A stretch of 64,000 nt of DNA from a bacterium. Lineage in GTDB: Bacteria; Patescibacteriota; Minisyncoccia; Phycocordibacterales; UBA9973. The notes beneath the pieces were generated by a model. It saw nothing but the letters and a program-made list of their open reading frames with translations. It made no database searches and was not told the DNA's origin. The translations under genes and the position numbers were made by a program. Every line of letters starts with the position of its first letter. Position 1 is the stretch's first letter. Positions 7,812 to 50,388 of this stretch are shown in pieces. The DNA lies in assembly GCA_037127795.1 (NCBI GenBank), contig JBAXXQ010000001.1, positions 6,842 to 70,841 on the forward strand, given 5' to 3'.

Positions 7812-7812
7812 A

Positions 7813-8313: not shown

Positions 8314-8316
8314 ATA

Positions 8317-8802: not shown

Positions 8803-8803
8803 A

Positions 8804-9271: not shown

Positions 9272-9272
9272 A

Positions 9273-10475: not shown

Positions 10476-10536
10476 ATATATATTGTATCATGTACGCCGT
10501 GCTTGCATAGAGCTATTTTGCCTGTACAATACCAAC

Positions 10537-11252: not shown

Positions 11253-12665
11253 CTATATATTCAACCTCCAAAGAGTGCTATCGTTTTTATTTATAAAATA
11301 AAGCTGATTATGCATTTCGTCATATTGCAAATTTGTCGCATCAAAATCTACCCCGCCATCATATAATATACTTAGCATATTAAGCCCAGGAGAAATACGA
11401 ATTATCTTATCACTAAAATGTGTTATACCTGCATACCACGTATCGGGATAATTTCCTGTTGGAGGATTTTGCATAGTTGCACATATAAGAGCATCTTGCG
11501 ATGTCCATACACATTTTTCAGGAAGAGTAGTAATAGCGAGCGTAGTAATAGTACCATCTGAAGTTTTATACAATTTTGTAGAAAAACTACCTTGTGTAGA
11601 CTCAGAATACAATATATAAGAACCACTAGGACTTAATGATGCAGTAAGACCGTTAATATTACCTAATATTTTTTTCAAACGAGCATCTGTTAATAGAATA
11701 CTATAGAAAAATCCTTCTACCGCCCCAGCAGCACGAGTTTGCACACTTACTGTATTTTGAGAATTCCAAGAAATAAGCCAATCATGAAATGGATTATTCA
11801 TTATTTCTTTTCTTCCTTTATTACTAGTATCAGAAATAGTAAGCGCGGTCCCACCTGTCGTATTGGGTGCAAGCTGTGCGAGATACCCTTGATCTGGACT
11901 TACTGCAAGACTTTTTATATTATCAGCCAAGAAAAATCCTGCGAGTTGTGTACGACTACCATCAAGATTTGGGTCTGGGATAGGCACACCAAATGTTGCC
12001 ACAGTTTTTTGATCATCTCGAAGAAATCGTAAAAACACCTTTTTACCTTGATCAGAAAAAAGTGCCTCATAAATATTTGGTATATAAATATTGGTTATTT
12101 GTGTTGCTACTCCGCCATTTGCAATTTCATATACATACCCACTCTTTCTATCTACATATCGAATATAGTTATTAGTAGAAAAATCACTTGTCGCAGGAGA
12201 AGTTGTTTGAGGTTGTGGCGTAGGTGTAACTGGTGCAGGATTTGCTATAGATGCTGGTTGCTGTACAACAACAGTCTTTGTTGTTTTTTTACCAGTTTTT
12301 TTATTAATAGTTACAATAGTTTTTGTAATAGGCTTTGTTGTAACACTTGATGGAGTACTTACCGCTGCTGTAGTAAGGATTTTTTGTTGATTCATCACAG
12401 TATACCCAGCAACCGGCACAGGTACTATTTGTTCTAGTTTTTGCACAACCTTTACTGCAGTGCTACTACCATCACTATTTGTAGCACCAGGCAATACAAT
12501 AGCCCCATCACTACCACTACCCCCTATATTTATTTTTCCAACCAAAGGAAACGATATCTGACTTACTACTTGAGGAATAGTCTGTCCTGTTTTATACACA
12601 CTAAAATACCACCAAATACCAAATGCAGTACCAAGCGCTATGAGTATAAAAAGTATTTTACGCAT
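11253..12665 (-). CDS. Secreted or membrane-anchored protein, possibly a beta-propeller, that ends the T4SS-like block
   Basis: 470 aa with an N-terminal signal anchor, a Thr/Pro-rich linker (PVTPTPQPQTTSPATS) and a C-terminal domain with repeated beta-strand-like segments. Confidence 0.45.
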   Translation of the reverse strand: MRKILFILIALGTAFGIWWYFSVYKTGQTIPQVVSQISFPLVGKINIGGSGSDGAIVLPGATNSDGSSTAVKVVQKLEQIVPVPVAGYTVMNQQKILTTAAVSTPSSVTTKPITKTIVTINKKTGKKTTKTVVVQQPASIANPAPVTPTPQPQTTSPATSDFSTNNYIRYVDRKSGYVYEIANGGVATQITNIYIPNIYEALFSDQGKKVFLRFLRDDQKTVATFGVPIPDPNLDGSRTQLAGFFLADNIKSLAVSPDQGYLAQLAPNTTGGTALTISDTSNKGRKEIMNNPFHDWLISWNSQNTVSVQTRAAGAVEGFFYSILLTDARLKKILGNINGLTASLSPSGSYILYSESTQGSFSTKLYKTSDGTITTLAITTLPEKCVWTSQDALICATMQNPPTGNYPDTWYAGITHFSDKIIRISPGLNMLSILYDGGVDFDATNLQYDEMHNQLYFINKNDSTLWRLNI

Positions 12666-12684
12666 GAGAATAGTATACTACAAA

Positions 12685-14445
12685 CTAACTTCCAATTCTT
12701 TTAATATAAGTAATCTTATCTTTATAAGACTCTACTGTTCGGGTACCAAAACCACCAGCAACAGGATGCCCGCCTCCACCATGAGATTCTGCCAGTTGCC
12801 CATTTCCTATATATATAAGCACATGTCCAAAACCCTTACCTACAGCTTTCCAGCCAACAATATCACCAGGATTAAGTGTTTTACCATTTATTGCTGTATT
12901 TGTTATTCTTGAAGAATATGTTGTTTCTCCCCCATTAAAAATAGAATCTGTTCCTCCGTTAATAAAATCTGTTCCAGCTTTATATCCAGCACAATCCAAA
13001 ACAGTAGTAACAAAACCTGAACAATCTAAGTGGGAAGTTCCGTCAGATTGTACTGATGGATCCTTACCTTTACATATACTATTACCACTACCACAAGAAT
13101 TACTTAAATCAATATCATATGTTATTTTTCCTTGCCAACTCATAGCTATTTTATTTATATTGGAAGATTTACCTGATTTAAGACAAAACACACCGTTTGG
13201 TAGAGACCCAGAGGCTGTAAACTTTGTAGGTGCATTAGTATCACTATCCTGCTTAGTTATAAGTAATTGATCAATTCCTATAGTATTAGAAACCAGTGTT
13301 GGGTTTATAGTATTCAAAACAACGTACGCACTAAGTGCTATAAGAAGTCCTATACCCTTGTCCATCAAGGTACCCTTTACAGAAGCCTTAACTCCAGCAA
13401 CATCAGTAAGCATATACTTGAATCCATCAGACATTATACTTATCACCAAAATAACAACAGCAATACCAATAGCGTATTTAATAATAGTATTTAATAAATC
13501 ACTAAAACTACATATAGCATTAGCGTTTATTTTTTTTGCCAATGTACAAGACAAAGACCCAGGATCGGCAACAATAATAGTAGGGGTAAGGTCGTTTATA
13601 CTGGTACCTTTTACAGAAGAAAGAAGACCATACGCATTTTCCTCAAGATCCTTTGCTTGTGCTTTAATATTATTTCCAAAAACAGAGTTTGCCTGGGTTA
13701 TATTTTTAGGATCATCATATACCCATGGTCCATTATTTAATTTATATGCTTGTCGAAGGTAATATATAGAACCCGGGTTTGCAAATATACCAGGAAGAAT
13801 ACAAGAAAAACTTCCATCGCTATGTAAACAATTTGTTGCAGGAAATATAGGAACAGCCCCTTTATATGCTGCATCATACTGAGTTTTATCTGTTGTTGCT
13901 TGTATTGCAAATTCATATCCAGTTATTCCGTTTGGCAAATTAAGCCCTCCTGTCGCTAATGCGTTTCCATTCGCATCAGCAACGCCTATAGTAAGACTAC
14001 GAAACTCTACGGGTATCAAGGAATCATATTTAATATTTTGTAAAAAAGGTTTGCCTGCATTTTGCAAATCAATACTGGTTAAATCTGGAAACTTATAGAC
14101 ATATAAATAAACAAGAGGCGACGATCCGATCTTTGTATCCAAAACTACATCAAAATCTGTTTTAGGCAAAGGGTTTGATATTTTATATAAAGCATTATTT
14201 CCATAAGTAATATCACTTACACTAAATTGAGATAATAATTTAGTTGTAAATATAACTCTATATGCAGCATTAGGGTTTGTAGAAGTAGGAAGTGGTCCCT
14301 GTGAAAGATCAGGGCACCCTTTGACAGAAATAGTGGTTCTATCTGTTTGAGCAATAGGTACTGCCGTTAAAGAACAATTTGCAAATGCATTACTACCTAA
14401 AAAAAGTGTTGTAAGAAATATAAACGTGTAAAAATATTTTTTCAT
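12685..14445 (-). CDS. NlpC/P60-family peptidoglycan hydrolase with an N-terminal ectodomain and a TM hairpin. It is a candidate VirB1-like cell-wall hydrolase for the T4SS-like locus.
   Basis: The C-terminus has the catalytic Cys motif LDCSGFVTTVL and the His motif GHVLIYIGNG...H, both typical of NlpC/P60. Upstream of the domain lie a signal peptide and two hydrophobic helices (IGIAVVILVISIM, GIGLLIALSAYVVL). Confidence 0.7.
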   Translation of the reverse strand: MKKYFYTFIFLTTLFLGSNAFANCSLTAVPIAQTDRTTISVKGCPDLSQGPLPTSTNPNAAYRVIFTTKLLSQFSVSDITYGNNALYKISNPLPKTDFDVVLDTKIGSSPLVYLYVYKFPDLTSIDLQNAGKPFLQNIKYDSLIPVEFRSLTIGVADANGNALATGGLNLPNGITGYEFAIQATTDKTQYDAAYKGAVPIFPATNCLHSDGSFSCILPGIFANPGSIYYLRQAYKLNNGPWVYDDPKNITQANSVFGNNIKAQAKDLEENAYGLLSSVKGTSINDLTPTIIVADPGSLSCTLAKKINANAICSFSDLLNTIIKYAIGIAVVILVISIMSDGFKYMLTDVAGVKASVKGTLMDKGIGLLIALSAYVVLNTINPTLVSNTIGIDQLLITKQDSDTNAPTKFTASGSLPNGVFCLKSGKSSNINKIAMSWQGKITYDIDLSNSCGSGNSICKGKDPSVQSDGTSHLDCSGFVTTVLDCAGYKAGTDFINGGTDSIFNGGETTYSSRITNTAINGKTLNPGDIVGWKAVGKGFGHVLIYIGNGQLAESHGGGGHPVAGGFGTRTVESYKDKITYIKRIGS

Positions 14446-14448
14446 ATA

Positions 14449-15147
14449 TTAAAAATTAATCTGCGTATTTAATGTTGCCGACTGCCAATCACTATGTGTT
14501 GATTGCATACTACTTGAAAGCTGTACAGAACCACTATCAGAAGGTTTCAAGATAGGTATTTCAAAATTATTGATAGCTGTTGGAGTTTGGTCGCCAAGCT
14601 GAAATGCAATAGCGAGATCTGATAATACATTTTTTGGTATTGAGAAAAAGTACGGCTCAACACGAAGTGTGGTACCTGCATATTTCAAATCAAATGAATC
14701 TGTATAGCCATTATTATAATCAACAAACCCGTCTCGTTTTTCATATGCAACAAGCGCAGGGGTTATTGGTGTAATATCTGCAGTAGCTGAAGCATCAGAA
14801 ATATTGCCTCCAGTGTGTAATGTGACCGCAAGTGACTCTGTATTATTAAGAATATTATGAGTAAATGTCATACTATTTTTATTTACTCCAGAAAAACTAC
14901 TTAATGATGCCCCATTACGAGACCAAGTAAATGTTGTAGTTTTTGGTGTAAAAATACTTGATATAACAACCGCCCTAATCCCCCCTTCATTACTAGGAAG
15001 CGCTTTTCCTTTATAAAAAGGTGGTGCATATGAATCTGTAGATTCCCACAAAATATCTACTCGTGAGTCAGTGGTCGCATCTTGCGCATAACTTACAAAA
15101 GGAGACAGTATGAGAAGAAAAAATACAAGTATAGAAACTTTTTTCAT
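14449..15147 (-). CDS. Secreted hypothetical protein in the T4SS-like operon
   Basis: The internal start MKKVSILVFFLLILSPFVSYAQD gives a signal peptide. The start was reset to 15147, since the track ORF start at 15246 overlaps the VirB4 gene. Confidence 0.5.
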   Translation of the reverse strand: MKKVSILVFFLLILSPFVSYAQDATTDSRVDILWESTDSYAPPFYKGKALPSNEGGIRAVVISSIFTPKTTTFTWSRNGASLSSFSGVNKNSMTFTHNILNNTESLAVTLHTGGNISDASATADITPITPALVAYEKRDGFVDYNNGYTDSFDLKYAGTTLRVEPYFFSIPKNVLSDLAIAFQLGDQTPTAINNFEIPILKPSDSGSVQLSSSMQSTHSDWQSATLNTQINF

Positions 15148-15196
15148 ATCATCAGTATACCATATACAAATACCAAGGCGATATCTAGCCTTGGTA

Positions 15197-17011
15197 TTAT
15201 ATCTTTCTTTGCTCTCTAAATTCTGCTTTTGCTTTTTTGATTGCAAGTACTTGTGATGGATCTGAAGTAATAATCTGGTCTTCGGTATATGAAGAAATGA
15301 TTTTTATTGCCACATGTTTCAACCCTGCAAAGAATATCCCCTCCCCAACACCTGATTCAAGCAACAAATATCGCTCTTCATCAGTCAAATTAAAGGTTTT
15401 TTGCAATACATCCATAGAGCTTGGAGATTGTTTGAGCAAAAGCTGAATCGATGAGTTGGTCACAATCGGTACCCCGTATGGTGATTTCATAAAGTCTCCT
15501 ACGTCTTGGGTAATAGTACAAAGTCCAAGATAGTATTTTCTTCCTCGCTTTGCAATACTGTACAAGAATGATGCAGTATCATCACTTTTCATCATCCACC
15601 ATGCCTCATCCACAATAAGGAGTCTTTTTTTGATTTGGCGACGTACCGCATTCCAAATAAAGTGCGTTACGATATACATAGCGGCCGGCTTGAGATCATC
15701 TTCCATATCTCGTACAGAAAATACAATAAACTTTTTATTTATATCTACATTTGAAGGTTGGTTGATGAAGTTTGACCATGATCCTTTAGTATACTTGGTC
15801 AATCGAGTAAGAATAGACTCACTCCCCTCCATACCAGAAAGTACCATTTCAAAATCAGAAAGCAACGGTGGCTCAACACTCGCAAAATCTGAATTAGGGG
15901 TAATATCTTTCAATGCATATGTTTCTGTAATAGCACGGTCTACAATAGAATCCTCTTCTGGAGTAAGCCCTCCAAGCATAATACGAAACAACCCAACCAG
16001 GTTGATAATATTTGAACGCAATACGTCTTCTGGAGATTCATCTTCACGAGGGACAGGGAGGTCAAATGGATTGATATGATGATCTGAAGAAAGAGAGATA
16101 TTGAAATATCTTCCTCCTACTGCTTCTGCAAGATATTCATACTCTCGCTCTGGGTCAATAACAATAACCTCTGTTTCAAACATGAGCGTGCGAATAATTT
16201 CAAGCTTTGTTGCATATGATTTACCAGATCCAGATTTTGCAAAAATAATTGAGTTATAGTTTTCAAGAGAAAATCTATCAAAAATAACCAAACTAGAGTT
16301 GTGACGATTTACTCCATACAAAATCCCTTTATCATCAGTAAGATCAAAAGATACAAATGGAAAAATACTTGAAAGTGGTTCTGAGTTGAGCTTTTGGGTG
16401 ACATTGAGTGCGTCTTTTGCAAATGGCGATACAGTACGGAAACCGTCTTCTTGTTGAAAAAGTGCTGGTTTTATATAGATCATGCGAGATTCAAGGATAG
16501 ACTTGATCTCATTTTCAGATCTAAAAAGCTCTGTATCATTATCTGCATATACAGTAATGTATAAACCTACATCAAACATCTTTTCCTGTGCTTGGGTAAG
16601 GTTGTCGCGAAGTTCTTCGAGATCTTCTGCGGCAGTATCAAGTACTGGATCACGTACAAGACCTTTGTTCTGACGCTCCATAATCTGACTTTCTACTTCA
16701 GCAATTTTTTTCTGAAAGTGTTTCAAAAGTTCAGTGGTTGGAATCGGGTTTATATAAATAGCAACATCAAAAATTTTGTCGAGGTTGATAATAGGAGTAA
16801 ACCAATTATCAGAGAGATATCGAGGATATGAGAGGACAAAAAACGTACGTGCAATTTTATCCCCCAAGTGTATCCACTTTGGAGTAATCTCAAGTGCTTC
16901 AGGAGCAATAAGATCTTGCAGCTCAAGAGTTGCAGAAGAGTATAAATCGGTCGGCAAAATAGGTAATTGTTTACCTGTTGTTTGTTTTTGTTCACCACCA
17001 AAAATTCCCAT
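15197..17011 (-). CDS. VirB4/TraC/CagE-family conjugal-transfer-type ATPase, ATPase-domain half
   Basis: 604 aa with Walker A FAKSGSGKSYATK, Walker B RLLIVDEAWWMM and VirB4-family similarity throughout. Confidence 0.8.
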   Translation of the reverse strand: MGIFGGEQKQTTGKQLPILPTDLYSSATLELQDLIAPEALEITPKWIHLGDKIARTFFVLSYPRYLSDNWFTPIINLDKIFDVAIYINPIPTTELLKHFQKKIAEVESQIMERQNKGLVRDPVLDTAAEDLEELRDNLTQAQEKMFDVGLYITVYADNDTELFRSENEIKSILESRMIYIKPALFQQEDGFRTVSPFAKDALNVTQKLNSEPLSSIFPFVSFDLTDDKGILYGVNRHNSSLVIFDRFSLENYNSIIFAKSGSGKSYATKLEIIRTLMFETEVIVIDPEREYEYLAEAVGGRYFNISLSSDHHINPFDLPVPREDESPEDVLRSNIINLVGLFRIMLGGLTPEEDSIVDRAITETYALKDITPNSDFASVEPPLLSDFEMVLSGMEGSESILTRLTKYTKGSWSNFINQPSNVDINKKFIVFSVRDMEDDLKPAAMYIVTHFIWNAVRRQIKKRLLIVDEAWWMMKSDDTASFLYSIAKRGRKYYLGLCTITQDVGDFMKSPYGVPIVTNSSIQLLLKQSPSSMDVLQKTFNLTDEERYLLLESGVGEGIFFAGLKHVAIKIISSYTEDQIITSDPSQVLAIKKAKAEFREQRKI

Positions 17012-17047
17012 GATATAAGTATAGCATATGAATATGACGAGATGATA

Positions 17048-17692
17048 TTATTGTGTCGGCATTTTTACATTACTACTTCCTTCTCCTGGATTAAATGTTT
17101 TATACAAAAGTTCTATAAGTTCTTCTGTACCAAGACTTGCAGTACGGACTCCGAGTCTTCCTAAGCCTTGCTCTACAACAGAAACGCGTTGCTCGAGCTG
17201 TGTGCGTTGTTCTTCAAAATCTTTGAGCATTTGTGTTTGTGTATTATTACTACCAAACAATCCAGTAATTTTCCCCATGAAACCACTATTAGTACTGGCA
17301 AGTGGTGGAACATACGGTACCACTACATAAAATGATTTGCGCATAATATTCACATTTTCATTAAAAGAACGAATAAATTCAATATACTCACGTGTTTGTG
17401 TTTGCAAAAGTGGTTCTTCCTGTTCTTTGAGTCTTGCATCAAGTAATAACAGATATGGGCGTATGTCGTATCGACGAGATTGGATCAAAATTTGTATTGG
17501 AAAATCAAGTCCATTGAGGAACCCTTGAAATTGCATCAGTACAGACTTTTGCTCTTCATACGATTTGAGGCTGAGGTTGATAGAAGAAACAAGCACTGCT
17601 TTACAGAGCGAGTCGTCTTTGAGCACAATAACACCGTCTCGAACTTCTTTGACGGGTACAAACTCTTGAGTTGGTGATGATTTTACTGCCAT
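17048..17692 (-). CDS. VirB4 N-terminal domain encoded as a separate ORF
   Basis: 214 aa with FVPVKEVRDGVIVLKDDSLCKAVLVSSINLSLKSYEEQKSVLMQFQGFLNGLDFPIQILIQSRRYD, which resembles the N-terminal region of Gram-positive VirB4 (TraE/Orf16-type). It is in the same frame as 15197-17011 and separated from it by a single TAA plus 12 codons. Confidence 0.6.
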   Translation of the reverse strand: MAVKSSPTQEFVPVKEVRDGVIVLKDDSLCKAVLVSSINLSLKSYEEQKSVLMQFQGFLNGLDFPIQILIQSRRYDIRPYLLLLDARLKEQEEPLLQTQTREYIEFIRSFNENVNIMRKSFYVVVPYVPPLASTNSGFMGKITGLFGSNNTQTQMLKDFEEQRTQLEQRVSVVEQGLGRLGVRTASLGTEELIELLYKTFNPGEGSSNVKMPTQ

Positions 17693-17693
17693 A

Positions 17694-18266
17694 TTATTTT
17701 CTCGTATCTATTATATCAAGACTTCGTGATAATGTTTTGAGTTTATCCTCTGTAAGTGATGGACGAAGTACTCGATCAGTCTTGGGTGCAAGCGCACGAT
17801 CAGTTCTCGTATCCACAGGAGCTTGCTGTTGTGCACCTTGCTGCGCAAATCGATTAACATTTTGTTTTTGGTGTAAATACATATTTTGATTTACCATTGC
17901 CATATCTCCCTGTACTGGCGTATTGTCGCGAGCTGTATCTATCCCCCACGATTCAGGAGTTTGTGCTATTGCGGCTTTCTTTTTTTGCCAAATATATAAT
18001 CGTGATCGAAAATAATATTTTACAAATGATTCTACAAAGTTTATAAATGGCTTGTCGTTATATTTATAAAACGCAAGCGCCGCACCAAACCCTCCAAACG
18101 CTAAACCAAATACTGCAGAAAAAGGAAATGGTAATAATTTAAAACAAAGATATAATCCTCCTGTCCCACCAGCAAGATACGCAAACTGTTTAAAAGTAAA
18201 CGGTCCAAAAATTTTATCTTCAATGTCAATAAATTGTGGGACTTTGAATTGCATATATACAATCAT
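17694..18266 (-). CDS. PrgI-family (VirB3-like) small membrane protein
   Basis: The N-terminus FKVPQFIDIEDKIFGPFTFKQFAYLAGG followed by two TM helices matches the PrgI/VirB3-analog pattern (KVP..I...EDKI.G.T.RQ..YL). It sits immediately upstream of VirB4, the canonical gene order. Confidence 0.55.
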   Translation of the reverse strand: MIVYMQFKVPQFIDIEDKIFGPFTFKQFAYLAGGTGGLYLCFKLLPFPFSAVFGLAFGGFGAALAFYKYNDKPFINFVESFVKYYFRSRLYIWQKKKAAIAQTPESWGIDTARDNTPVQGDMAMVNQNMYLHQKQNVNRFAQQGAQQQAPVDTRTDRALAPKTDRVLRPSLTEDKLKTLSRSLDIIDTRK

Positions 18267-18292
18267 ACCGCACTTATATAGTAATGACTATA

Positions 18293-18856
18293 CTACAAAG
18301 GCATTTCGCGGTATGGATCTGTTGATTTTGTTGGCGCACCAGGATTTTGCATTGGTTTATTTTGAGATCCAGGGATAAACTTTTGTGCAACAGAGGCAAT
18401 AGGAGCAACAACACTTGGTTTTTGCATTTTTGCCTGAATAGAAGCAAACAATTGCCCCATCTCTTGATTTTCAGGAGAAGATACTGTTTCAATATTATTA
18501 ACACCTATTTCATCTTTTTCTTCCTCCAGACTATTGGTAATCTCTGAAATAGTTGGATCTATTATGAATTCCTGTATATACCCAAGAAATATATCTTTAT
18601 TTTCTTCAGATAACCCCAGAGAATCAATAGTATTTTCAAATTCTTCTTTTGTAGAAAAATGAATAAGAAAATCAAATAATGCATTACGCGCAGTAGTAAC
18701 TTGTTCACTAGTAAATCCTATTTTCTTTTCGATAGTATCAAGTATATTTTTGTATGCATCGCTAAACAAAAACTCGCGAACCTCTACAGGAGTCATATCG
18801 AGTTTTTCCTCGTATAGATTCATATATTCTTCATTTGGATTATATTCGGTATCCAT
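18293..18856 (-). CDS. Acidic soluble hypothetical protein in the T4SS-like operon
   Basis: 187 aa with no TM segment and no recognisable motif. Confidence 0.4.
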   Translation of the reverse strand: MDTEYNPNEEYMNLYEEKLDMTPVEVREFLFSDAYKNILDTIEKKIGFTSEQVTTARNALFDFLIHFSTKEEFENTIDSLGLSEENKDIFLGYIQEFIIDPTISEITNSLEEEKDEIGVNNIETVSSPENQEMGQLFASIQAKMQKPSVVAPIASVAQKFIPGSQNKPMQNPGAPTKSTDPYREMPL

Positions 18857-18859
18857 ATA

Positions 18860-21800
18860 TTATTTACCCCCCTCTTTAGCCTTATCTTGTATTTTTTTCT
18901 CAAGAGCTTCTCTTTTATCCCAAATATTTTTTAAATCATTATGCTTATCTTCTGCAGCCTTCTTTGCTATTGAAGCATTAGCAAAAGCTTCTTTATCTGA
19001 TTCTGCTGGACTATCTATATTCATAAACACTTTTTCTGCTTTTTTATGTTCAGCATTAGCAACTTGAACATCAGAATATGCTTTTGCAACGATTTTTTCA
19101 AAATCATCCTTTTTCTCCTTATCTTTGTCTTTATACTTTTCATTATACTCTTCATCAGGCACGTCCTCACCAACAAGGGTCTTTTTAACCTTTTCGTCTA
19201 ATTTTCGTAATTGCGCCTCAAGACTATTCTTACCTTTATTCTTACCATAATCTCTAGTATATGAATCAGCAGCTTTTTTCATAGCATCTGTTTCAGCAGG
19301 AGCAAGATATTTTGACCATGTTCGCTTTTCTCCATCTGGTTTAAAGTATAGAGAATTTTGCTTCATATCTTCTGCATAGTCATTCTTCATTGCAGCAGAA
19401 AAATCTTTAACACTGCCAATTTTTCCATATTTTTCAACATCATCTTTTTGTTTCTTTTCAAACAATGTCTTAACTTTATCTTTAAAGATTTTTTCTTCTT
19501 CATCACTGAGAGACTGCTTACCACCCTTGATTTTTAGTGTGTTAGCATCAATTCTACTTGCCTGTACTTTGTTTTGCTCTTTTATAGTAGACACCAATTC
19601 ACTCAACTTAGTGTTATGTGTTTCCAAAAGTTGCATTTTTTGTGCTTTTTCCTCTTTTGAATACAAACCAGCATTAAGCCCTGTTTTAATTTCTTTTATA
19701 GCAGCCTCAGCTTGCTTTTTCTGATCTGTAGCATTTTTCTTTGTGGCTTCAGCTGTTTTATATTGCTCATCTTGCTCTTTAGTAAATGCAGCAATAGCTT
19801 CTTTTTCAGCTTTTCTTCCTTGATGTTTTTCCCAAGCCATTTTTGCACCAACATCATCAAGATAATCAAATGTGCTAGATTTTTCAATCTTTTCTTTATT
19901 TTGTTTTTCTTTACGCTCTTTCATTCCTTTGAAGCCACCTTCAAAATCTTTTTTACCAAAACCAACCTTTTCAGCAAATTTATCATTATAATTCATACCA
20001 ACAGACCCCCCCACCTTACTAAGACCTGACATAATAGTGCTATTATTTCTAAAATCAAAACTAGCTGTCTGTGATTTATTAAGCGCATTATTTGCCTTTC
20101 TTGCAAAATAGTTATTATCAGCATTTGAGCTTGCCCATTGCCCTAGTCTTGACTTACCAATAGACCTTCCTGCTACACCACTCAATCTTGAACCCGCAGC
20201 TGCAATACCAGACGCCGCACCCATAGTACCCACAGTAAGCGCTGCTCCACCAACAAAACCTGCAGCCTTTGACATCATAGCCTGTGCTTGTTTTCCAAAA
20301 TCACCAGCAAAAGAAGTAATAATTACTTTCCCTTTATCCAAAAGACCCTTTACAATAAGCAATGGTATTGCTATCCAAAGGACTGTATATGTAAATGTAT
20401 GGTTTGTGCCATCAAGGTGTGATGTATAAAACGGTGTCTGCATTATCTTTATCACCAGATAAAAATATATAACAGTAACTGGAGCAAGGATAGCATAATT
20501 CATCAATTCACCAAGCCATTTTGTCCAATGCAAAGAATCAAGTTTTGATAAGAATGGTATCTCTCGAGACATAAATGCAACCGGAGAAAATATCATAGCA
20601 ACATATAACCCAATCACACGACCAATAAATATAAATCCTATACTCCAAAAAATAAGCCCTGTACCAAATGCAATAAAGGTACAAATAAGCACCACAAGAG
20701 TAAAGTAGCCCGCATATTCTTCTGGAGAATCCTTTTTAATTTGTGATAAATCTTTTGCTGTACCAAATGTAGCAGCACCACCATTTGTTTGAGCACTCAC
20801 CTGATCTTTTGTAGCTTGTGCTTTTGATGCCTCATCTGTGCCAGATAATGCATTATTAAATACTCGTTGCGGATCAAAGCTTTGTACAACAATAGCAGAG
20901 ACCCCTTTATATCCAGAATCACTATTACCATTATTTGCAGCACCACTAGACCCGACAGTACCTGCGTTATTACCCTGTACGCTAATTTGTGCGTAAAATA
21001 CTCGCGCAACAATATTTGAAATATCTATAACACCACGAGTAAGAAGCAAGCTAAAGTTTATTAAAATAGCATTAACAATAATTGCAGAAACAAGCTTCTT
21101 CAAATCTTTACCGCCAAAAATAGTAGATAATCCTGCATATATCAAAAGAATAATAAAGAATATATTTGCAATATCTCGCACTGTCGTCCATGCACTCGCT
21201 ACAAATGGTTGTAAATATGCAGTAGAACTAATTGAATACCCTAAAAAGAAGTCAAAAATATTCCCCATTAAATATGCAAAAAATGCAGCCCCTCTAAAAA
21301 GTACATAGTAGAAAAAGAGTGCAATACAACCCATGAATGTACCACTACTCATCCAGGTAAGACCACAAGAAGGCAATACATCATTACCACTAGCGGCAAC
21401 ACTAGCACCAGCAGCAGCTACTGCTTGTGTCATATCTGTAGCATTTTGATCAATGGCAGCCTGAGCGTTTGTAGTAGGAATAGTATATGGAATTGGTTTA
21501 CCAATTCTATAATAATACCCCTCAACAACCTTTGTGGTTTTTGTGTTTGACCATGAGGCACATTTTATTCCTGCTGTAGGACTTGCACTATTCCATAATT
21601 TTTTAACATCCTTTGGGTTATTTTTTGCATCAGTATCATCAGAAACAACAATACTATAAGTACCTTGTTTATATGTATACACCGAGGGGTCTTGCTCTGG
21701 ACAATACCAAAGACCCATATACACCTGCTGACCAGGAGCCAAGTGTCCTGTTTGAACAATTGTTTTTACTGTTTCTGATTGATTGGTCGCATTACTATCA

Positions 21801-22363
21801 TTTTTGGGTTTTCCATTTGAATCAGTTGAGTTATCGGTAAAATATTTATAAAAACTAGATGTTGGCATTTTTTGCGCAATAAGCGCATCATCAGCACTAC
21901 TTGTAGAATGTTCTTGAGGCAATATTATAGGTTGCCCAAAAATATTACCATTAGTATCTTCTAGTGTTGCAACAAAAGATGCTGTATCTTTACTTGGTCC
22001 ATAATAACTAAAATCTGCATTACCATCAGAAAATACATGTCTCCAACCATTTTTTATATCTGTCCATTTATTAGTAAAAATCAAATTTGCCTGTATAGTA
22101 AGCTCGCTTGCACCAATAGTAGTATCTTTTGAATCAAATTTATTTGGATCAGCTGGTGGTTTAAAATCAGTAGAAACCACACTCATACTTTTTATACCAG
22201 AATTCACATTATCAAAAAGATCAGAACCATATCCAGTTAGAGTAGGGCCACCAGCAGGCCAATTACCCGCAAATGCAGTACTAGCAGGTACTACAATACC
22301 TATAATAAAAATACTTAGGAGAACGGAAGTAATTATTTTTTTCCAAGCAAATGCTTTTTTCAC
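18860..22363 (-). CDS. Giant polytopic membrane protein, VirB6/TrbL-like, with an N-terminal secreted domain and a C-terminal K/E-rich coiled-coil tail
   Basis: 1167 aa with a signal peptide, a roughly 330-aa ectodomain, at least six hydrophobic helices between roughly residues 340 and 700, then about 450 aa of low-complexity KEKQNKEKIEK-type charged repeats. Confidence 0.5.
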   Translation of the reverse strand: MKKAFAWKKIITSVLLSIFIIGIVVPASTAFAGNWPAGGPTLTGYGSDLFDNVNSGIKSMSVVSTDFKPPADPNKFDSKDTTIGASELTIQANLIFTNKWTDIKNGWRHVFSDGNADFSYYGPSKDTASFVATLEDTNGNIFGQPIILPQEHSTSSADDALIAQKMPTSSFYKYFTDNSTDSNGKPKNDSNATNQSETVKTIVQTGHLAPGQQVYMGLWYCPEQDPSVYTYKQGTYSIVVSDDTDAKNNPKDVKKLWNSASPTAGIKCASWSNTKTTKVVEGYYYRIGKPIPYTIPTTNAQAAIDQNATDMTQAVAAAGASVAASGNDVLPSCGLTWMSSGTFMGCIALFFYYVLFRGAAFFAYLMGNIFDFFLGYSISSTAYLQPFVASAWTTVRDIANIFFIILLIYAGLSTIFGGKDLKKLVSAIIVNAILINFSLLLTRGVIDISNIVARVFYAQISVQGNNAGTVGSSGAANNGNSDSGYKGVSAIVVQSFDPQRVFNNALSGTDEASKAQATKDQVSAQTNGGAATFGTAKDLSQIKKDSPEEYAGYFTLVVLICTFIAFGTGLIFWSIGFIFIGRVIGLYVAMIFSPVAFMSREIPFLSKLDSLHWTKWLGELMNYAILAPVTVIYFYLVIKIMQTPFYTSHLDGTNHTFTYTVLWIAIPLLIVKGLLDKGKVIITSFAGDFGKQAQAMMSKAAGFVGGAALTVGTMGAASGIAAAGSRLSGVAGRSIGKSRLGQWASSNADNNYFARKANNALNKSQTASFDFRNNSTIMSGLSKVGGSVGMNYNDKFAEKVGFGKKDFEGGFKGMKERKEKQNKEKIEKSSTFDYLDDVGAKMAWEKHQGRKAEKEAIAAFTKEQDEQYKTAEATKKNATDQKKQAEAAIKEIKTGLNAGLYSKEEKAQKMQLLETHNTKLSELVSTIKEQNKVQASRIDANTLKIKGGKQSLSDEEEKIFKDKVKTLFEKKQKDDVEKYGKIGSVKDFSAAMKNDYAEDMKQNSLYFKPDGEKRTWSKYLAPAETDAMKKAADSYTRDYGKNKGKNSLEAQLRKLDEKVKKTLVGEDVPDEEYNEKYKDKDKEKKDDFEKIVAKAYSDVQVANAEHKKAEKVFMNIDSPAESDKEAFANASIAKKAAEDKHNDLKNIWDKREALEKKIQDKAKEGGK

Positions 22364-22402
22364 ATCAATAGTATATCACTTTGTTGCTATAAAAAACTAG
22401 TG

Positions 22403-23185
22403 CTACCAGATGTGTAATTTAAGATTATCTTCGATACCATTATATTGAGCAAAACTTCCATCTATATTATATGTCGGAGCACCTTGTGTACCATTTGTAA
22501 GGAAACCACCAGTATTTGTAGCACCTCCAGAAGAATTTTTCTTATCGAGCTTTGAATCACTCCAAAATGGCGTAGGAAGGTGTACTGCATAATATCCAGT
22601 AAAACTAGACTCGACGCTTTCACAATAATTTCTAAGTTCTTTTATTTTTGCAAGCTCAAGCGCCATACCGTCATATATAGATTGTTCATCTGCTACATTA
22701 TCATCAGAATATAGTTGTTGATACAATGCACCAAAACGAGTATTTAATACCGCAAGTTGTGCTTGCTCAGCAGCAGTAAAAGGAATATTCAAATCAACAT
22801 CACTACAGGTAAGATTATTTGCATTTACTATATTATTATTTATTGTCCAAGAAGTATTATTATTGTCTGATATATCTCCAGAGTCACCCGATTGTGTATT
22901 CACTGTACTAGTAGAAGATGTAAAAATAGACACGAGTGGATTAAACCCATTAGAACTTGTAGTACTATTCTGTGTTGCGCTCGGATTTGTAAACAAAGAA
23001 GAGAGTAATGTATTACCAGAACCATCCTGTGCTGGCTTTTTATCTCCAAGACCAAGAAACTCTCTAAAACTCGCTTGATGTCCAAGGCTTTTTTGTAATT
23101 GCGCATTACGATACGCAACAAAAGCAAACCCTCCTATGACGATAATTATAACCAATATAGTGATGAATAATTTTTTGTTTTGCAT
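22403..23185 (-). CDS. N-terminally membrane-anchored hypothetical protein
   Basis: 260 aa with a single N-terminal TM segment (ITILVIIIVIGGFAFVAY) and a Ser/Thr/Asn-rich ectodomain. Confidence 0.45.
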   Translation of the reverse strand: MQNKKLFITILVIIIVIGGFAFVAYRNAQLQKSLGHQASFREFLGLGDKKPAQDGSGNTLLSSLFTNPSATQNSTTSSNGFNPLVSIFTSSTSTVNTQSGDSGDISDNNNTSWTINNNIVNANNLTCSDVDLNIPFTAAEQAQLAVLNTRFGALYQQLYSDDNVADEQSIYDGMALELAKIKELRNYCESVESSFTGYYAVHLPTPFWSDSKLDKKNSSGGATNTGGFLTNGTQGAPTYNIDGSFAQYNGIEDNLKLHIW

Positions 23186-23188
23186 ATA

Positions 23189-26100
23189 CTAATCAGCACA
23201 GAGTGCTACGCTTGATGTTTGTAATGATCTATATTTTAAATTAGGATCCAATGTTTCTGCGATAGTACTTCCTCCTCCGTAATTTCTCAAAAGAGTACCT
23301 GCTTGTATTTGCGCATATGGTCCTGGGTCAGGGAATTGATATACAGAGCTGTCGTGTGGAGGGCTAAATGTAGTACCCAACAAAGATGATTTTGAAGGAT
23401 TAATATCTTTTGTATAGAACCCTTCGAAAGGAACACTTACTGTATTGATTGATATTCTTCGAGGTTTTCCTGTTGTTGTATCAATATCATTATTATCAGA
23501 AATAGTAATAACATATCGCACGTTTTTTGGAATATATTCTTCTATTGAGTGAGTACATACATTATCTGTTTCACCTATATGTGTCTTACTATTATTACCA
23601 CGACCAGAATCTTGAGAATATTCATCACATTTTCTATATGTTTCAAATAATGAAGTAAGACTAGTGTCAGTTATAGTTGGTATCGTAGTAACATCTTTAT
23701 CATACAACCCGATAATATTAGGATCTTTTCCTCCTGAATCTATATCAATAGTAGTATCAGGATAATTAAAATTCCACCCATCGGTCAAATAACTAAGCCA
23801 AGTCAAACCACCAGCACTCATTACCTGAGTTCCACAACTTCCACTTGGATCAACATTAGGATTACAACTAGGGTTACATGATGGATCATTATTTAAATAT
23901 GCAGTATCTTGTGTGCTTGGATCTGTCCCCCAAGAAAAACTTGTCATACATGCTCGTGGTGCACAATTTGGATCATAATTTGGATCTGATGGGCCAGCAC
24001 AAATAGTAGTACCAGAAACATTAGTAATATCTCCTCCACTAGTGAATGTATTTGAAGATGAAGCATCAGGAAGCCATGGCATATCTATATAGTTTGTAAT
24101 ACCCGATACGTGCAACATAGATAATGCAGCAGCACTACCAGGATTGACAATAGCATTCATTAAATAAATATTACTTTGGAAGATAGTATCAATAGTTTGT
24201 CCACTTATATATAATGCATCTCCGTATCTAGGTCTTGAAGCTTTAGCGGCAACATTTGAACCTTCTAGTTTTATTTGAGGATCTTTATATACCGCAAGAG
24301 GGAATCCTCCATAGGGTGCTAGTTCAGCAGCCTGATCTGCTCTATAATAATCAGCATATACCTGCCTATCTACATGTACATGATAATTCCCTGCAGCAAC
24401 AGTCTTTATTGGTGTTAATGTAATAGAGGTAGTTGGTTGCACACTTTTTGCCAAAAGATTTGGCCCCATAAGACAACTTACCGCATTAGATTTTGCGATA
24501 AAACCAATTTTTGATACAGGTTTTACTGTTGGCGGGGTACATGTTGCATTAGCTATACCACCGGCAGTATTACAAAGATTTTGATAAAAATCATATTGTG
24601 CAAATTGTGATTGGATTACCGTAGAATCACTGTTTGCATCAGACTCTTGAGCAGGGGCTCCAGCTGTTGAAAGATTGATAGCATAATTTTGATCAAGGCA
24701 ACTTTGATTTACGGTAATACCTTGTGCTGCCTGTGTTGCAATATGACGAGCACGTGCAACTTTTACAATAGCAAGTACTTGATTATAAATATCTTGCATT
24801 TGCGCTGCGGTAGATTCCGCCTTATCTATTTCAGTACCATAGGCGTCAGCATTTGCTTGGAGCTGATTGTTGTATTCAATCAAATTAAAAGATTCATTAT
24901 ACATATCACGAACTTGTCCACGAACAAATTCCGGAGAATTATTCTTATTTGGATCAGTAAGTACATATTGATCCATAAGTGTATCGAGACCATATCGAGT
25001 ATTTATTTCATTGGTATATGAAGAAAACCATTGCTCAAATGCATCCGCAACATCAGATCCAGGGGTAGGGCTTGCCTCTGTTTTTGTTACTGTATGAGAA
25101 CAGCTAGTGTTAAATTGCCCAGCAGATCCTAAAATACCGCCAACAGATGAACCTGTTGAACCTCCAATATACCCCCCTGCAAGCGAACCGACAGCACTTG
25201 TTAATGCTCCACTATTGAGCAAACTAGAACCAATATTACATGCAATATCCAAAAATCCCTCATTGTTTGGCTCTTGTACTTGGTATGTGTATGGAGGGTG
25301 AATAGGATATATATTAAAAACCTGATTTCTATAAGGAATTACACTATTTGTAACAGGGTCTTGAAAACCATATCTATCTGTAGCAAATGATTCATTTGTA
25401 TAATTAGGTGCTGGGCCAGGTCCTTGATATCCAGAACCAGAAGATAATGCTTTATTAAAATTATCATTACTATCTCCTGCATATACAGACCATGAAGGAT
25501 TTGGTCCAGGGAGACAATAATCAAGTGCTCCAAGATTTGCAACCATTTTTTTGTTTGCGTTAATAGAATCACTTGCTTTATTTATATAGTCATACTGTGT
25601 TTTAAGAATTGCGGCAAGTTGTGTCGTATGTGAAATATCAAAATTAGCTCCTACATCTGCACCGTTAGCATAACTAATTTCTGCAGTTGCTGTATCTACA
25701 CCATCAGTAGCTAAAGGTAAGCTATTACTAAACGGACTTGGAGACCATTTATTCGGTGTTGTAGGTGGATTGTACGGATAATCCTGACTTCCTTCTCCAT
25801 AATGAGCAAGTCCTTTATTGAGCCAATCATTAAGCTTTGCATCTACAATCCCCGCAATAACATCACTTATTTTATTTGCTGTCTCGAGTTGATGAATTTG
25901 TGTAGTAGTAATAGCGTTTGCCTGATTTGCAATAGCATCTCCAGGAGTAACTACACGAAATTGTGTGCATACTTTTTCTCCATTTTCATCTGTTTGATTA
26001 CTATATTTTGCACACACTTTTTGACTAAAATACCCATGTCCTTGATTGAGTTCATTTTGTGCATTATTTTTTTGATTACTATAATCACGATTAATATAGT

Positions 26101-27043
26101 CTATAGTACTGAGGTATTGCCCCATAGCATTTCCTTGGTTGTAAGTACTATTGAGCCATCCAGTCCACCCACCAGTCATTATATTATTAGCATCTTTATT
26201 ATACGTTTTACCAAACTGAGTATTTGAAAGATTACTCAAAAAATGAGGTGTCTTACCTGTTATCTCACTAGTAATAAGATTGTTTACTTGTTGATTAACA
26301 GCATTATTTAAAGTGGGATCATTACTACTTACTGTAAGGTTTGCAGGTTTTAAGTATTTATACAAAATACTATGATACATATTTTGAAAATATGATGACT
26401 GATCAGTAACATAAAATGGCGATCCTGCCATACCCGTATTTATATAACCCAATACAATACTAGACATTTTCGCTAATGATTTTCGAAGAGTATATTTTGC
26501 TAGAGCATCTGTACAAGTCTCACGCTTGTCTTGATTTGCAGCAGTGGTCTTGGCAATATCAACAGCAGCCTTACCGTTACTATTTATAGCATCTACTATA
26601 TTTGTTTCAGAAACAATCACAGGTTGTTGTATACTCGACCCTGTACTTTTTACCGAAGCATCTTTTTCATTTGATGCTTTTTTAAAAGCATCAGCTTGTA
26701 ATCTATTTTTACAAGAGGTACCACAAAAAAGTCCTCCATGTGCAACAGGAATAACAACACCCGCACCTGCTATATATTGATTAGTAACACCTCCAAAAAG
26801 CGCACTACTTGCCTTAGAGACTTCTTTATTTGCAAATGCAGTAACACTACCAACCCCTTGAGTAATCCAATCATCAGAAGATTTACCTCCAGCAACCTGA
26901 CAATTAAGCAAAGCCCCTGTCATACCAGTAACATTTATATTTGATCCTTGAAAAGACTGTGCATAAGTTTGAGAAATAGGTAAAAATAAAACACATCCTA
27001 GAAAAATGGTGAGTATTGTTTTTTTGCCAAAAAAATATTTCAT
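23189..27043 (-). CDS. Giant secreted surface protein, a candidate adhesin or substrate of the T4SS-like locus
   Basis: About 1283 aa from the internal start MKYFFGKKTILTIFLGCVLFLPISQTYAQS, which is a signal peptide. The protein is rich in N, T, S, G and Y with many Cys pairs. The start at 27043 abuts the upstream gene stop at 27045. Confidence 0.55.
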   Translation of the reverse strand: MKYFFGKKTILTIFLGCVLFLPISQTYAQSFQGSNINVTGMTGALLNCQVAGGKSSDDWITQGVGSVTAFANKEVSKASSALFGGVTNQYIAGAGVVIPVAHGGLFCGTSCKNRLQADAFKKASNEKDASVKSTGSSIQQPVIVSETNIVDAINSNGKAAVDIAKTTAANQDKRETCTDALAKYTLRKSLAKMSSIVLGYINTGMAGSPFYVTDQSSYFQNMYHSILYKYLKPANLTVSSNDPTLNNAVNQQVNNLITSEITGKTPHFLSNLSNTQFGKTYNKDANNIMTGGWTGWLNSTYNQGNAMGQYLSTIDYINRDYSNQKNNAQNELNQGHGYFSQKVCAKYSNQTDENGEKVCTQFRVVTPGDAIANQANAITTTQIHQLETANKISDVIAGIVDAKLNDWLNKGLAHYGEGSQDYPYNPPTTPNKWSPSPFSNSLPLATDGVDTATAEISYANGADVGANFDISHTTQLAAILKTQYDYINKASDSINANKKMVANLGALDYCLPGPNPSWSVYAGDSNDNFNKALSSGSGYQGPGPAPNYTNESFATDRYGFQDPVTNSVIPYRNQVFNIYPIHPPYTYQVQEPNNEGFLDIACNIGSSLLNSGALTSAVGSLAGGYIGGSTGSSVGGILGSAGQFNTSCSHTVTKTEASPTPGSDVADAFEQWFSSYTNEINTRYGLDTLMDQYVLTDPNKNNSPEFVRGQVRDMYNESFNLIEYNNQLQANADAYGTEIDKAESTAAQMQDIYNQVLAIVKVARARHIATQAAQGITVNQSCLDQNYAINLSTAGAPAQESDANSDSTVIQSQFAQYDFYQNLCNTAGGIANATCTPPTVKPVSKIGFIAKSNAVSCLMGPNLLAKSVQPTTSITLTPIKTVAAGNYHVHVDRQVYADYYRADQAAELAPYGGFPLAVYKDPQIKLEGSNVAAKASRPRYGDALYISGQTIDTIFQSNIYLMNAIVNPGSAAALSMLHVSGITNYIDMPWLPDASSSNTFTSGGDITNVSGTTICAGPSDPNYDPNCAPRACMTSFSWGTDPSTQDTAYLNNDPSCNPSCNPNVDPSGSCGTQVMSAGGLTWLSYLTDGWNFNYPDTTIDIDSGGKDPNIIGLYDKDVTTIPTITDTSLTSLFETYRKCDEYSQDSGRGNNSKTHIGETDNVCTHSIEEYIPKNVRYVITISDNNDIDTTTGKPRRISINTVSVPFEGFYTKDINPSKSSLLGTTFSPPHDSSVYQFPDPGPYAQIQAGTLLRNYGGGSTIAETLDPNLKYRSLQTSSVALCAD

Positions 27044-27044
27044 A

Positions 27045-27950
27045 CTATTGTTGTAGTGTATCATATTTTGCTATAGCTTGGTTAAGGTTATCCATAGCAG
27101 TATTCAAAAGAGTAGTAGCATTACTATATTCTCCTATAGCAGTTGCACCAAGCAGGTCATCATTTTTTATATTTGCAGCAGCAACAAGTGTATCTCCAAT
27201 AGTTTTTATACCGTTTACATAATCAAGATGCTCTCTCGCAATAGATATTGGAACCTTTATTTGTATAAGTTTTTGAGCAATTACTTGATACTCTTTGCCA
27301 TTTTGCGCAACACTATCGAGCTTACTATAATCATTATTTTGTACTGCATCAGACAAGATAGTCGTTTCGTCTTGGTCAAAATGTACTTTTGCTATAACTT
27401 TTTGAAAATTTATCGCATAACTATGTATATTATTTATAGTAGAAGGCAATAATATTACATCATTTATTGTATATAATTTCTTTTGTACAGGTTTAACAAT
27501 ATTTTGCACGAGCGGTGTAGTTACATCTTGTAATGTACCAGCATCAACATTACCGACTTGGTCCAAGATACTGGTCGTAGTGTAAATACCATATGCGAGT
27601 TTGTCTGTACCAGAGGCGGTAGAAAGATCGGTACCACCCGCAGCTTTATTTTCAGCCCTTTTTTGCATTACAATATCCCTATTTGATATACCATTCGTAA
27701 CAGCAACAGTAGGATCAAGCCCCCAGAGACGCTCTTCCCAATCTGGAATACCGTTATTATTACTATCTATTGCAATAATATCACCAAATGTTTGTTCTTT
27801 TTGGGTAGAAAGAACTTTAGGTCTATAGCTAAAGATTTTTTGTAAAATACCTGTTTGCACAACAATAATAACTAACAAAATACTACCTGCAACAATAGCA
27901 ACTCGCTTAAACTGTTTTGAAGGTTTTGGTATATTAGAAAACTGTTTCAT
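27045..27950 (-). CDS. N-terminally membrane-anchored hypothetical protein, first gene of the block
   Basis: 301 aa with the TM segment VAIVAGSILLVIIVVQTGIL and then a soluble domain. Confidence 0.5.
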   Translation of the reverse strand: MKQFSNIPKPSKQFKRVAIVAGSILLVIIVVQTGILQKIFSYRPKVLSTQKEQTFGDIIAIDSNNNGIPDWEERLWGLDPTVAVTNGISNRDIVMQKRAENKAAGGTDLSTASGTDKLAYGIYTTTSILDQVGNVDAGTLQDVTTPLVQNIVKPVQKKLYTINDVILLPSTINNIHSYAINFQKVIAKVHFDQDETTILSDAVQNNDYSKLDSVAQNGKEYQVIAQKLIQIKVPISIAREHLDYVNGIKTIGDTLVAAANIKNDDLLGATAIGEYSNATTLLNTAMDNLNQAIAKYDTLQQ

Positions 27951-41275: not shown

Positions 41276-41304
41276 GGGGCTTTTTATTGTATACTGGTAG
41301 TGTA

Positions 41305-50217: not shown

Positions 50218-50256
50218 AGATATAATATAAGCCCCTTATATAGTAATTGTATTTTG

Positions 50257-50327
50257 TGCGGCTACAGGGAATCGAACCCTGGTCTCGTCCTTGGCAAGGA
50301 CGCATTCTACCACTAAACCATAACCGC
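50257..50327 (-). tRNA. tRNA-Gly (anticodon GCC)
   Basis: Cloverleaf found by hand. The acceptor stem is GCGGTTA/TAGCCGC, the anticodon stem is CGTCC/GGACG, the loop is TTGCCAA and the T-loop is TTCGATT. No CCA is encoded. Confidence 0.8.
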
Positions 50328-50388
50328 AACAGAAATTAGTATAGATTATTTTTACTTTTTTGTAAATAAATGCTACATTTAGCGTACT

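Follow-up and report, generated by a model that had tools for sequence, protein, structure and literature searches.

A vertically inherited chromosomal type IV secretion locus in a Paceibacteria/Nomurabacteria-like member of the Patescibacteria

We analysed a 64,000-nucleotide stretch of contig JBAXXQ010000001.1 (assembly GCA_037127795.1; hereafter the window, numbered from its first letter) and, within it, a block of eleven genes that encodes the parts of a type IV secretion system (T4SS). The evidence makes it likely that this is a vertically inherited chromosomal T4SS of a Paceibacteria/Nomurabacteria-like member of the Patescibacteria, that it belongs to a Patescibacteria-clade type already published and derived from the conjugation machines of monoderm bacteria (MPF_FATA), and that it would act as a conduit for contact with a host cell. 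The genes of the membrane translocon (VirB6-like, PrgI/VirB3, TrsD-like and VirB4) were shown to be present and look intact; a single VirB2-like pilin and five more proteins that are exported or anchored are encoded with them.

Results

The translocon core and its two-gene VirB4

A first-pass annotation, made from the sequence without database searches, had named PrgI, VirB4 and NlpC/P60 proteins in the block, and each name was borne out by a hidden Markov model (HMM) score above the model's cut-off. The 190-aa product matched PrgI (PF12666) at E 1e-8 and 36 bits (cut-off 27) and carries two adjacent hydrophobic segments. Its gene lies directly upstream of the TrsD-like gene and was found in 77 of 82 loci, where counts out of 82, here and below, refer to related loci chosen by VirB4 similarity. 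The 604-aa product scored 381.6 bits (cut-off 325) over positions 182-733 of NF045971, the model for VirB4-like conjugal transfer ATPases of the CD1110 family, reached 91 bits against P-loop_TraG, and matched PrgJ in a phmmer search at E 2.4e-43. Its Walker A (AKSGSGKS, from residue 258) and Walker B (LLIVDE, residue 464) motifs are both intact.

The 214-aa product encoded just upstream aligned to the CD1110 model (positions 2-118), to VirB4_plasma (101-233) and to the TrsD model (21-99), and its precomputed annotation is TraC-like (PF26593). In the window the 214-aa and 604-aa genes share a reading frame and are divided by one TAA and 36 nt to the next ATG; the first-pass annotation had described them as VirB4 in two pieces. 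However, TrsD-like and VirB4 genes are separate in all 81 related loci that have both on one strand, in different frames in 57 of these, with spacers of -4 to ~500 nt. Since the two-gene state is found in all 81 of these loci, it is not that of a pseudogene, and a broken VirB4 was rejected. A UGA-recoding artefact was likewise rejected, the stop being TAA and the split universal. Judged by these comparisons, the "two pieces" are the ancestral TrsD and VirB4 gene pair. The same arrangement is reported to be the commonest T4SS feature of Patescibacteria (PMC12102498).

An extended VirB6-like channel subunit

The 1167-aa product starts with a signal/anchor and then has an outer domain of 310 aa, which is variable, a helical domain with seven transmembrane (TM) segments (~residues 340-700; about seven in the whole protein) and a 400-aa tail rich in lysine and glutamate (K/E), these two residues making up 30% of positions 761-1167. 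Because the TM segments follow an outer N-terminal domain, the tail is presumably cytoplasmic. Within the family the membrane domain alone is conserved, and both the outer domain and the tail differ between species. Residues 1-760 were modelled with AlphaFold2 from 49 homologues, and the predicted local distance difference test score (pLDDT) of the model was ~90 over the membrane domain. When this model was compared by Foldseek with 350,542 PDB chains, the top five matches were TrwI/VirB6 chains of the R388 T4SS (E 1.8e-3, probability 1.0, target TM-score 0.47-0.51); DotA was matched as well. Profile alignment of the family with hhalign gave E 1.6e-4 and a probability of 50% for Orf15 of Tn916 and was negative for PrgH (probability 1%), and the family profile found nothing meaningful among PDB sequences. 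By modelled fold and by position, not by sequence family, we accept the protein as a putative extended VirB6-type subunit. Compared with VirB6/TrwI of R388 and DotA of the Legionella Dot/Icm system, it is 11-16% identical in sequence and adds the 310-aa outer domain and the 400-aa tail of the "extended VirB6" type.

Synteny and chromosomal inheritance of the block

All eleven open reading frames (ORFs) that the first-pass annotation had called co-directional, with gaps of 50 nt or less, were recovered on the minus strand at 11253-27950. They encode products of 301, 1291, 260, 1167, 187, 190, 214, 604, 232, 586 and 470 aa (Table 1) and are spaced by -20 to +49 nt. Its descriptions of the membrane anchors, the polytopic 1167-aa protein with its K/E-rich tail, the acidic 187-aa protein and the two-TM 190-aa protein also hold; a single N-terminal hydrophobic segment was seen in each of the 301-, 1291-, 260-, 232- and 470-aa products. 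The label operon-like fared less well. The packing is real, but dense packing on the minus strand is shared by almost all genes between 217 and 31150, and co-directionality with short gaps is not distinctive in this region. A scan for consensus promoters and terminators yielded nothing above shuffled sequences and, being at background, permits no statement on operon boundaries.

The evidence that the eleven genes belong together is their synteny, which is kept in about 80 species-level genomes. The order UvrD-RsmA-301-1291-(260)-1167-(187)-PrgI-TrsD-VirB4-232-pilin-470-YidC recurs in ~80 species representatives at the same chromosomal position. The flanks were confirmed as the housekeeping genes that had been named at first pass: RsmA (27963-28757) lies 12 nt upstream of the block, and YidC (10393-11250, plus strand) is convergent with it and ends 2 nt past the last gene. 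The GC content of the block (0.33-0.38) is the same as that of its flanks. No mobile-element Pfam family was found in the block neighbours, and the relaxases (PcfG, MobT) and coupling proteins of pCF10 and Tn916, used as queries, gave no match near the block. Among the annotated window neighbours there is no relaxase Pfam family; several window ORFs carry no annotation, which keeps this absence from being absolute. From the UvrD-RsmA-block-YidC synteny, the flat GC content and the lack of an adjacent relaxase or integrase we conclude that the block is chromosomal and vertically inherited.

The relatives were drawn from a scan of one genome per species, which gave 597 tblastn-confirmed VirB4 relatives; the best 80 (74-95% identity) were kept. 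Almost all of these 80 are metagenome-assembled genomes (MAGs) of Nomurabacteria, Paceibacterota or Parcubacteria (Patescibacteria, or Candidate Phyla Radiation, CPR), and the bulk-binned relatives labelled Saccharibacteria all stem from one third-party annotation (TPA) project. We therefore assign the organism to the Patescibacteria, as a Paceibacteria/Nomurabacteria-like member whose genome is very small. The first-pass annotation had mentioned Saccharibacteria, but the relatives found here are not clearly of that group. A 34-kb Logan contig and an NCBI MAG carry the same block proteins, and the block amounts to ~2.9% of a 580,599-bp contig that bears a 100% identical copy of the 1291-aa protein.

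VirB4 had a median identity of 78% over the 82 loci, against 43-52% for RsmA, UvrD and YidC in the same genome pairs, a contrast that is somewhat inflated by the selection of the loci on VirB4 similarity. In these pairs the exported T4SS proteins reach 25-34% identity. A frozen motor thus stands in extreme contrast to surface parts that evolve fast.

Comparison with described systems

A Patescibacteria clade of T4SS has been described that has a separate TrsD gene, PrgI, VirB6 and VirB2-like pilins, lacks a relaxase in most members and lies near ksgA (PMC12102498). The T4SS of the Saccharibacterium Southlakia epibionticum (SEML1_0006-0019) is essential for epibiotic growth, and its cluster comprises VirB6-like, TrsD-like, PrgI, VirB4 and lysozyme products together with several of ~1000-1100 aa (PMC10633639). 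With this type the block shares an MPF_FATA-type VirB4, a separate TrsD-like gene and PrgI/VirB3, an extended VirB6-like protein of ~1100 aa, the PF18895 pilin domain, a peptidoglycan hydrolase downstream of virB4, the absence of a relaxase, a type IV coupling protein (T4CP) homologue elsewhere, a chromosomal site beside ksgA/rsmA and several uncharacterised products of ~1000 aa. Since the type is already published (Quinonero-Coronel et al. 2025, PMC12102498; Wang et al. 2023, PMC10633639), the first-pass claim of an uncharacterised architecture fails. Differences, at the level of the lineage, were nevertheless apparent. Here one pilin, fused to an enzyme and an N-terminal domain, takes the place of six small pilins in an array; an NTF2/VirB8-like gene was not recognised; and the block has an accessory set of its own, made up of the 301-aa and 1291-aa pair, the 232-aa protein and a TolB-like propeller. 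In contrast to S. epibionticum, the lineage here is Paceibacteria-like.

The first-pass recognition of a Gram-positive-type (MPF_FATA-like) core, ordered VirB6-like, PrgI/VirB3, VirB4 and cell-wall hydrolase, proved sound. The core of pIP501/pGO1 (Tra/Trs) likewise runs VirB6-like, VirB3-like, (TrsD/TraD), VirB4, small protein, cell-wall hydrolase, and the order VirB6-like, VirB3, (TrsD), VirB4, X, hydrolase of the block parallels PrgH-PrgI-PrgJ-PrgK of pCF10. An architecture without VirB7/9/10 is common to the block and these monoderm conjugative systems. In contrast to them, the block has no relaxase, oriT, adjacent membrane-anchored coupling protein, PrgB-type adhesin or plasmid or integrative and conjugative element (ICE) backbone; it has a VirB2-like pilin, which they lack; and its hydrolase is anchored by the pilin hairpin instead of a single TM segment.

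A pilin fused to exchangeable cell-wall enzymes

The 586-aa product had been described at first pass as a dedicated NlpC/P60 hydrolase. It is instead a VirB2-like pilin with a swappable enzyme domain, represented by a bare pilin in some relatives. The protein has a signal peptide, a variable 290-aa N-terminal domain, a two-helix pilin hairpin (~residues 315-385) and a C-terminal NlpC/P60 endopeptidase domain, which matched NLPC_P60 over residues 469-555 with 32.3 bits (cut-off 23) and carries the motifs DCSGF (from residue 474) and GHVLIY (from residue 540). Given the order of signal peptide, outer domain, hairpin and outer enzyme, both large domains would lie outside the membrane. The T4SS_pilin match of the window copy is sub-threshold (19.2 bits over residues 315-380, cut-off 26.6); among 61 positional orthologs, PF18895 was found in 51 (E<1e-3) and TrbC/VirB2 in five. 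A family HMM of the hairpin gave 90.8 bits for the 586-aa copy, the single such ORF in the window, and found one copy, occasionally two in tandem, in 72 related loci. Whereas a VirB2/TrbC pilin is a small bare hairpin of ~100-150 aa, the protein here has 586 aa with additional domains of 290 and 200 aa.

The products of the pilin gene range from bare pilins of 144-203 aa (five relatives) to 784 aa. The C-terminal enzymes among the 61 orthologs were NlpC/P60 (16), VanY (7), YkuD (5), Amidase_5 (4), Peptidase_M15_4 (3), SLT_2 (3), Amidase_2 (1) and SLT (1), with several unrecognised types besides, and the enzyme domain is invariably C-terminal to the hairpin. Clustering of the C-terminal parts gave 11 unrelated multi-member groups and 9 singletons. 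These enzyme groups do not track VirB4 similarity: the same group was found in 14% of pairs whose VirB4 proteins are 90-95% identical versus 11% at 75-80%, and nearest VirB4 neighbours agreed on the group in 17 of 66 cases. Two tandem pilin-fusion paralogs with differing C-terminal cassettes are present in each of four related loci (L003, L004, L005 and L015), which suggests that cassettes turn over by duplication and replacement.

No description of a pilin-enzyme fusion was found in the searchable literature, and the 2025 survey scores VirB1 and VirB2 separately (PMC12102498). A pilin fused to a species-variable cell-wall enzyme domain is apparently unreported. A tentative idea, which we think possible although on balance unlikely, is that the single T4SS pilin of this Paceibacteria lineage is an "armed pilin", composed of the hairpin, a hypervariable outer domain and an exchangeable peptidoglycan-active cassette that changes between species nearly as quickly as measurement can tell and is aimed at the wall of the host and not at its own. 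If this were true, a pilin enzyme matched to the chemistry of the host wall, and displayed on or delivered by the T4SS, would set the host range, and the logic of polymorphic effectors would be built into a pilin.

Exported and accessory proteins

The pair of 301-aa and 1291-aa genes is kept upstream of the VirB6-like gene, including in a distant locus (L088). The 301-aa gene occupies the same position in 37 related loci, always just upstream of the 1291-aa family gene, and its product has a conserved motif, DxDGDG..DWEE..WG.DP, in which D62, W71 and E73 are invariant; comparison with Pfam, PDB and PrgL revealed no similarity. In the 1291-aa protein, residues ~150-550 form a mostly helical core that is conserved and contains the invariant motif LDYC.PGPNP, and the C-terminal 500 aa are Cys-rich and hypervariable. 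Word-index searches for its homologues gave only 4 and 3 matches, whereas exhaustive HMMER searches showed a large family, with 4,272 clusters at 50% identity at E<=1e-3 and 634 at E<=1e-30. All orthologs of this family were scanned, and neither a Pfam core domain nor a PDB sequence match was found; an AlphaFold2 run on residues 36-850 with 7 sequences gave a mean pLDDT of 35 and no usable fold.

The 260-aa protein is recognisable in the closest relatives only (tblastn, 8 loci) and had no Pfam match. The 187-aa protein gave tblastn matches in 6 loci only, and neither a TM segment nor a Pfam match was found in it. The 232-aa gene lies between the VirB4 and pilin genes in 78 of 82 loci. Its orthologs are ~325 aa long with an extra N-terminal repeat. 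An independent assembly calls the gene as 232 aa. The family had only weak Ig-like matches in the PDB and is probably a beta-sandwich. The gene for the 470-aa protein is present in 71 of 82 loci, where it always precedes convergent YidC. Its family profile found TolB chains in the PDB (best E 2.5e-4), a weak but consistent TolB/PD40 similarity; PD40 repeats occur in four orthologs and PG_binding_1 in four.

An 11-bp perfect inverted repeat lies at 15169-15198, between the VirB4 stop and the start of the 232-aa gene. In its 81-nt context it folds with -18.5 kcal/mol (z -3.2; 1 of 200 shuffles folds as well), and it could be an internal attenuator or an RNA-stability element between the ATPase genes and the genes of exported components.

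A distal VirD4-like ATPase

The first-pass annotation had stated that no relaxase, integrase or coupling protein is adjacent to the block. None lies beside it, but a VirD4/TraD-like ATPase of 897 aa is encoded in the same window. The protein matched TrwB_AAD_bind at 29.5 bits (cut-off 20.5), T4SS-DNA_transf at 26.9 (cut-off 20.1), TraG-D_C at 25 (cut-off 22) and SXT_TraD at E 1.6e-16, and has a Walker A motif, GQTGTGKT, from residue 502. It has no TM segment, and its N-terminal region of 450 aa is DUF8128. The gene lies 25 kb from the block among housekeeping genes, between ClpP/trigger factor and tRNA genes. A VirD4-like gene has been reported for most Patescibacteria (PMC12102498).

Table 1. 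Genes of the T4SS block, from first to last, and the candidate distal partner
Feature	Position	Strand	Basis
301-aa membrane-anchored extracytoplasmic protein, first gene of block	27045..27950	-	TM residues 17-35
1291-aa signal-peptide protein (1284 aa from second ATG, NCBI call)	23189..27064	-	Conservation profile
260-aa N-terminally anchored protein, S/T/N-rich linker	22403..23185	-	TM residues 6-24
1167-aa extended VirB6-like channel subunit (putative)	18860..22363	-	Fold and position
187-aa acidic soluble protein, pI 4.3, lineage-restricted	18293..18856	-	No TM
190-aa PrgI/VirB3-like two-TM protein	17694..18266	-	PF12666
214-aa TrsD-like protein, VirB4 N-terminal domain as own gene	17048..17692	-	VirB4/TrsD models
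604-aa VirB4 ATPase core	15197..17011	-	NF045971, Walker motifs
232-aa secreted protein (265 aa from upstream TTG)	14449..15147	-	Signal peptide MKKVSILVFFLLILSPFVSYA
586-aa VirB2-like pilin fusion with NlpC/P60	12685..14445	-	NLPC_P60, family HMM
470-aa N-terminally anchored TolB-like beta-propeller protein, last gene of block	11253..12665	-	Family profile against TolB
897-aa soluble VirD4/TraD-like ATPase, outside block, candidate distal partner	53343..56036	-	Three T4CP Pfam models

Discussion

Host contact and competing explanations

By analogy with Saccharibacteria, and from the make-up of the locus, we infer that the machine would serve as a host-contact conduit. VirB4, with TrsD and PrgI, would energise assembly at the VirB6 channel. 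The pilin-enzyme protein would open peptidoglycan, and a filament on the cell surface may be formed or capped by it; the fast-evolving outer proteins would contact the host cell. The machine would then be a conduit for proteins or small molecules at the host contact and not a conjugation apparatus. This agrees with the chromosomal, non-conjugative use proposed at first pass: the function is most plausibly other than conjugation, and the combination of a relaxase and a membrane-anchored coupling protein on a mobile backbone, by which a conjugative system is recognised, was not found.

Several points weigh against the host-contact explanation or its parts. The conduit role is a proposal by analogy, and the evidence that VirB4 belongs to the Patescibacteria VirB4 clade is indirect, in that almost all of its 80 best relatives are labelled as Patescibacteria. 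The VirB6 assignment draws on fold only: the AlphaFold and Foldseek match to TrwI upholds the large polytopic VirB6 analog of the first-pass annotation, but a Pfam scan of the 1167-aa protein and 54 orthologs found no core domain, with TrbL (PF04610) silent throughout. No VirB8-like protein was recognised by sequence in the block; the 232-aa and 301-aa families, as candidates for the NTF2 fold of VirB8, gave hhalign probabilities of ~1% against PrgL, a comparison of sequence profiles only. The 301-, 1291-, 260-, 187- and 232-aa proteins and the N-terminal domain of the pilin have no recognisable fold or family. Finally, with a VirD4-like ATPase in the window, the machine may instead transport DNA or nucleoprotein.

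A DNA-uptake machine of the ComB or Ced kind, importing DNA from the host or the environment to supply nucleotides to a cell unable to make them, perhaps together with the neighbouring type IV pilus genes and the distal VirD4-like ATPase, seems improbable to us. VirB4 is weakly similar to the archaeal importers CedB and CedD (31.5 and 22 bits), and the 897-aa ATPase also touches CedD and CedB, but these scores are far under the curated cut-offs (700 for CedB, 600 for CedD) and do not amount to membership of either family. PilC and pilin genes lie directly past YidC, an adjacency seen in the two closest relatives only. The window also holds RecJ and UvrD, and an importer would be expected to lack a relaxase; however, no DNA-binding component was found in the block. 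In S. epibionticum, moreover, a comEC deletion is viable, and competence needs this dispensable gene whereas the T4SS is essential (PMC12857230).

There is also a small chance that the system is mainly an organelle for surface filaments or adhesion, in which the VirB4 machine only assembles a host-tethering pilin structure and nothing is translocated. VirB4 is the pilus-assembly ATPase in known systems (PMC12102498), the VirB2-like pilin is conserved and its place in the locus is fixed, and many proteins of the block are exported and evolve fast. Yet most copies of the pilin have bulky domains at both ends that are hard to fit into a homopolymeric VirB2-type filament, there is a single pilin gene where Saccharibacteria have arrays, and the VirB6 channel, being conserved and having a large, presumably cytoplasmic tail, suggests the handling of a substrate.

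An ordinary conjugative element (an ICE or integrated plasmid), or its decaying remnant with a broken VirB4, is very improbable: among characterised proteins its nearest homologues serve in conjugation (CD1110-type VirB4, PrgI, TrsD), an in-frame TAA divides the VirB4 parts, and a tyrosine recombinase and a VirD4-like gene lie in the window, but the block stands between RsmA and YidC in ~80 species, the two-gene VirB4 is universal and out of frame in most relatives, its Walker motifs are intact and it is more conserved than the housekeeping neighbours, there is neither a compositional island nor a relaxase match, and the recombinase lies 13 kb off among housekeeping genes and has an XerC/D-type domain set.

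Other genes of the window

The 306-aa tyrosine recombinase just mentioned (41287-42207, plus strand; Phage_int_SAM_1 and Phage_integrase) is probably a chromosome dimer resolvase and not the integrase of a mobile element. A type IV pilus module, with PilC/T2SSF and three or four N-methyl pilin-like genes, lies at 6528-10475 (minus strand) just past YidC. Since it adjoins the T4SS only in the two closest relatives, this adjacency is probably coincidental, and a functional tie to the block was dropped. A protein with LysM and Peptidase_M23 domains is encoded 3.5 kb upstream of the block (31496-32593, plus strand), and a homologue neighbours the T4SS in a related locus (L011); VirB1-type matches with LysM and Peptidase_M23 were noted in Patescibacteria by the 2025 survey (PMC12102498). 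Five tRNA genes (Gly-GCC, Arg-TCG, Pro-TGG, Gly-TCC and Gly-CCC) at 50256-52190 have no associated integrase or repeat. Unannotated ORFs occupy 61058-63143 (plus strand), and on the matching contig a PilB-type ATPase (MshEN and T2SSE) lies just beyond the end of the window; together these indicate a second pilus or secretion locus.

Significance

The Patescibacteria T4SS is the first T4SS reported to be essential for its own carrier bacterium. The window adds no new kind of system; what it gives is a Paceibacteria version that is clean and fully syntenic and whose parts can be listed concretely. These include a fold-supported extended VirB6, a two-gene TrsD/VirB4, a TolB-like propeller, a pilin whose cell-wall enzymes are interchangeable and, in the 1291-aa protein, an exported family that is very large, unannotated and tied to the T4SS machine. 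Through the pilin fusion it becomes testable how ultra-small epibionts breach or remodel cell walls and, possibly, what sets their host specificity.

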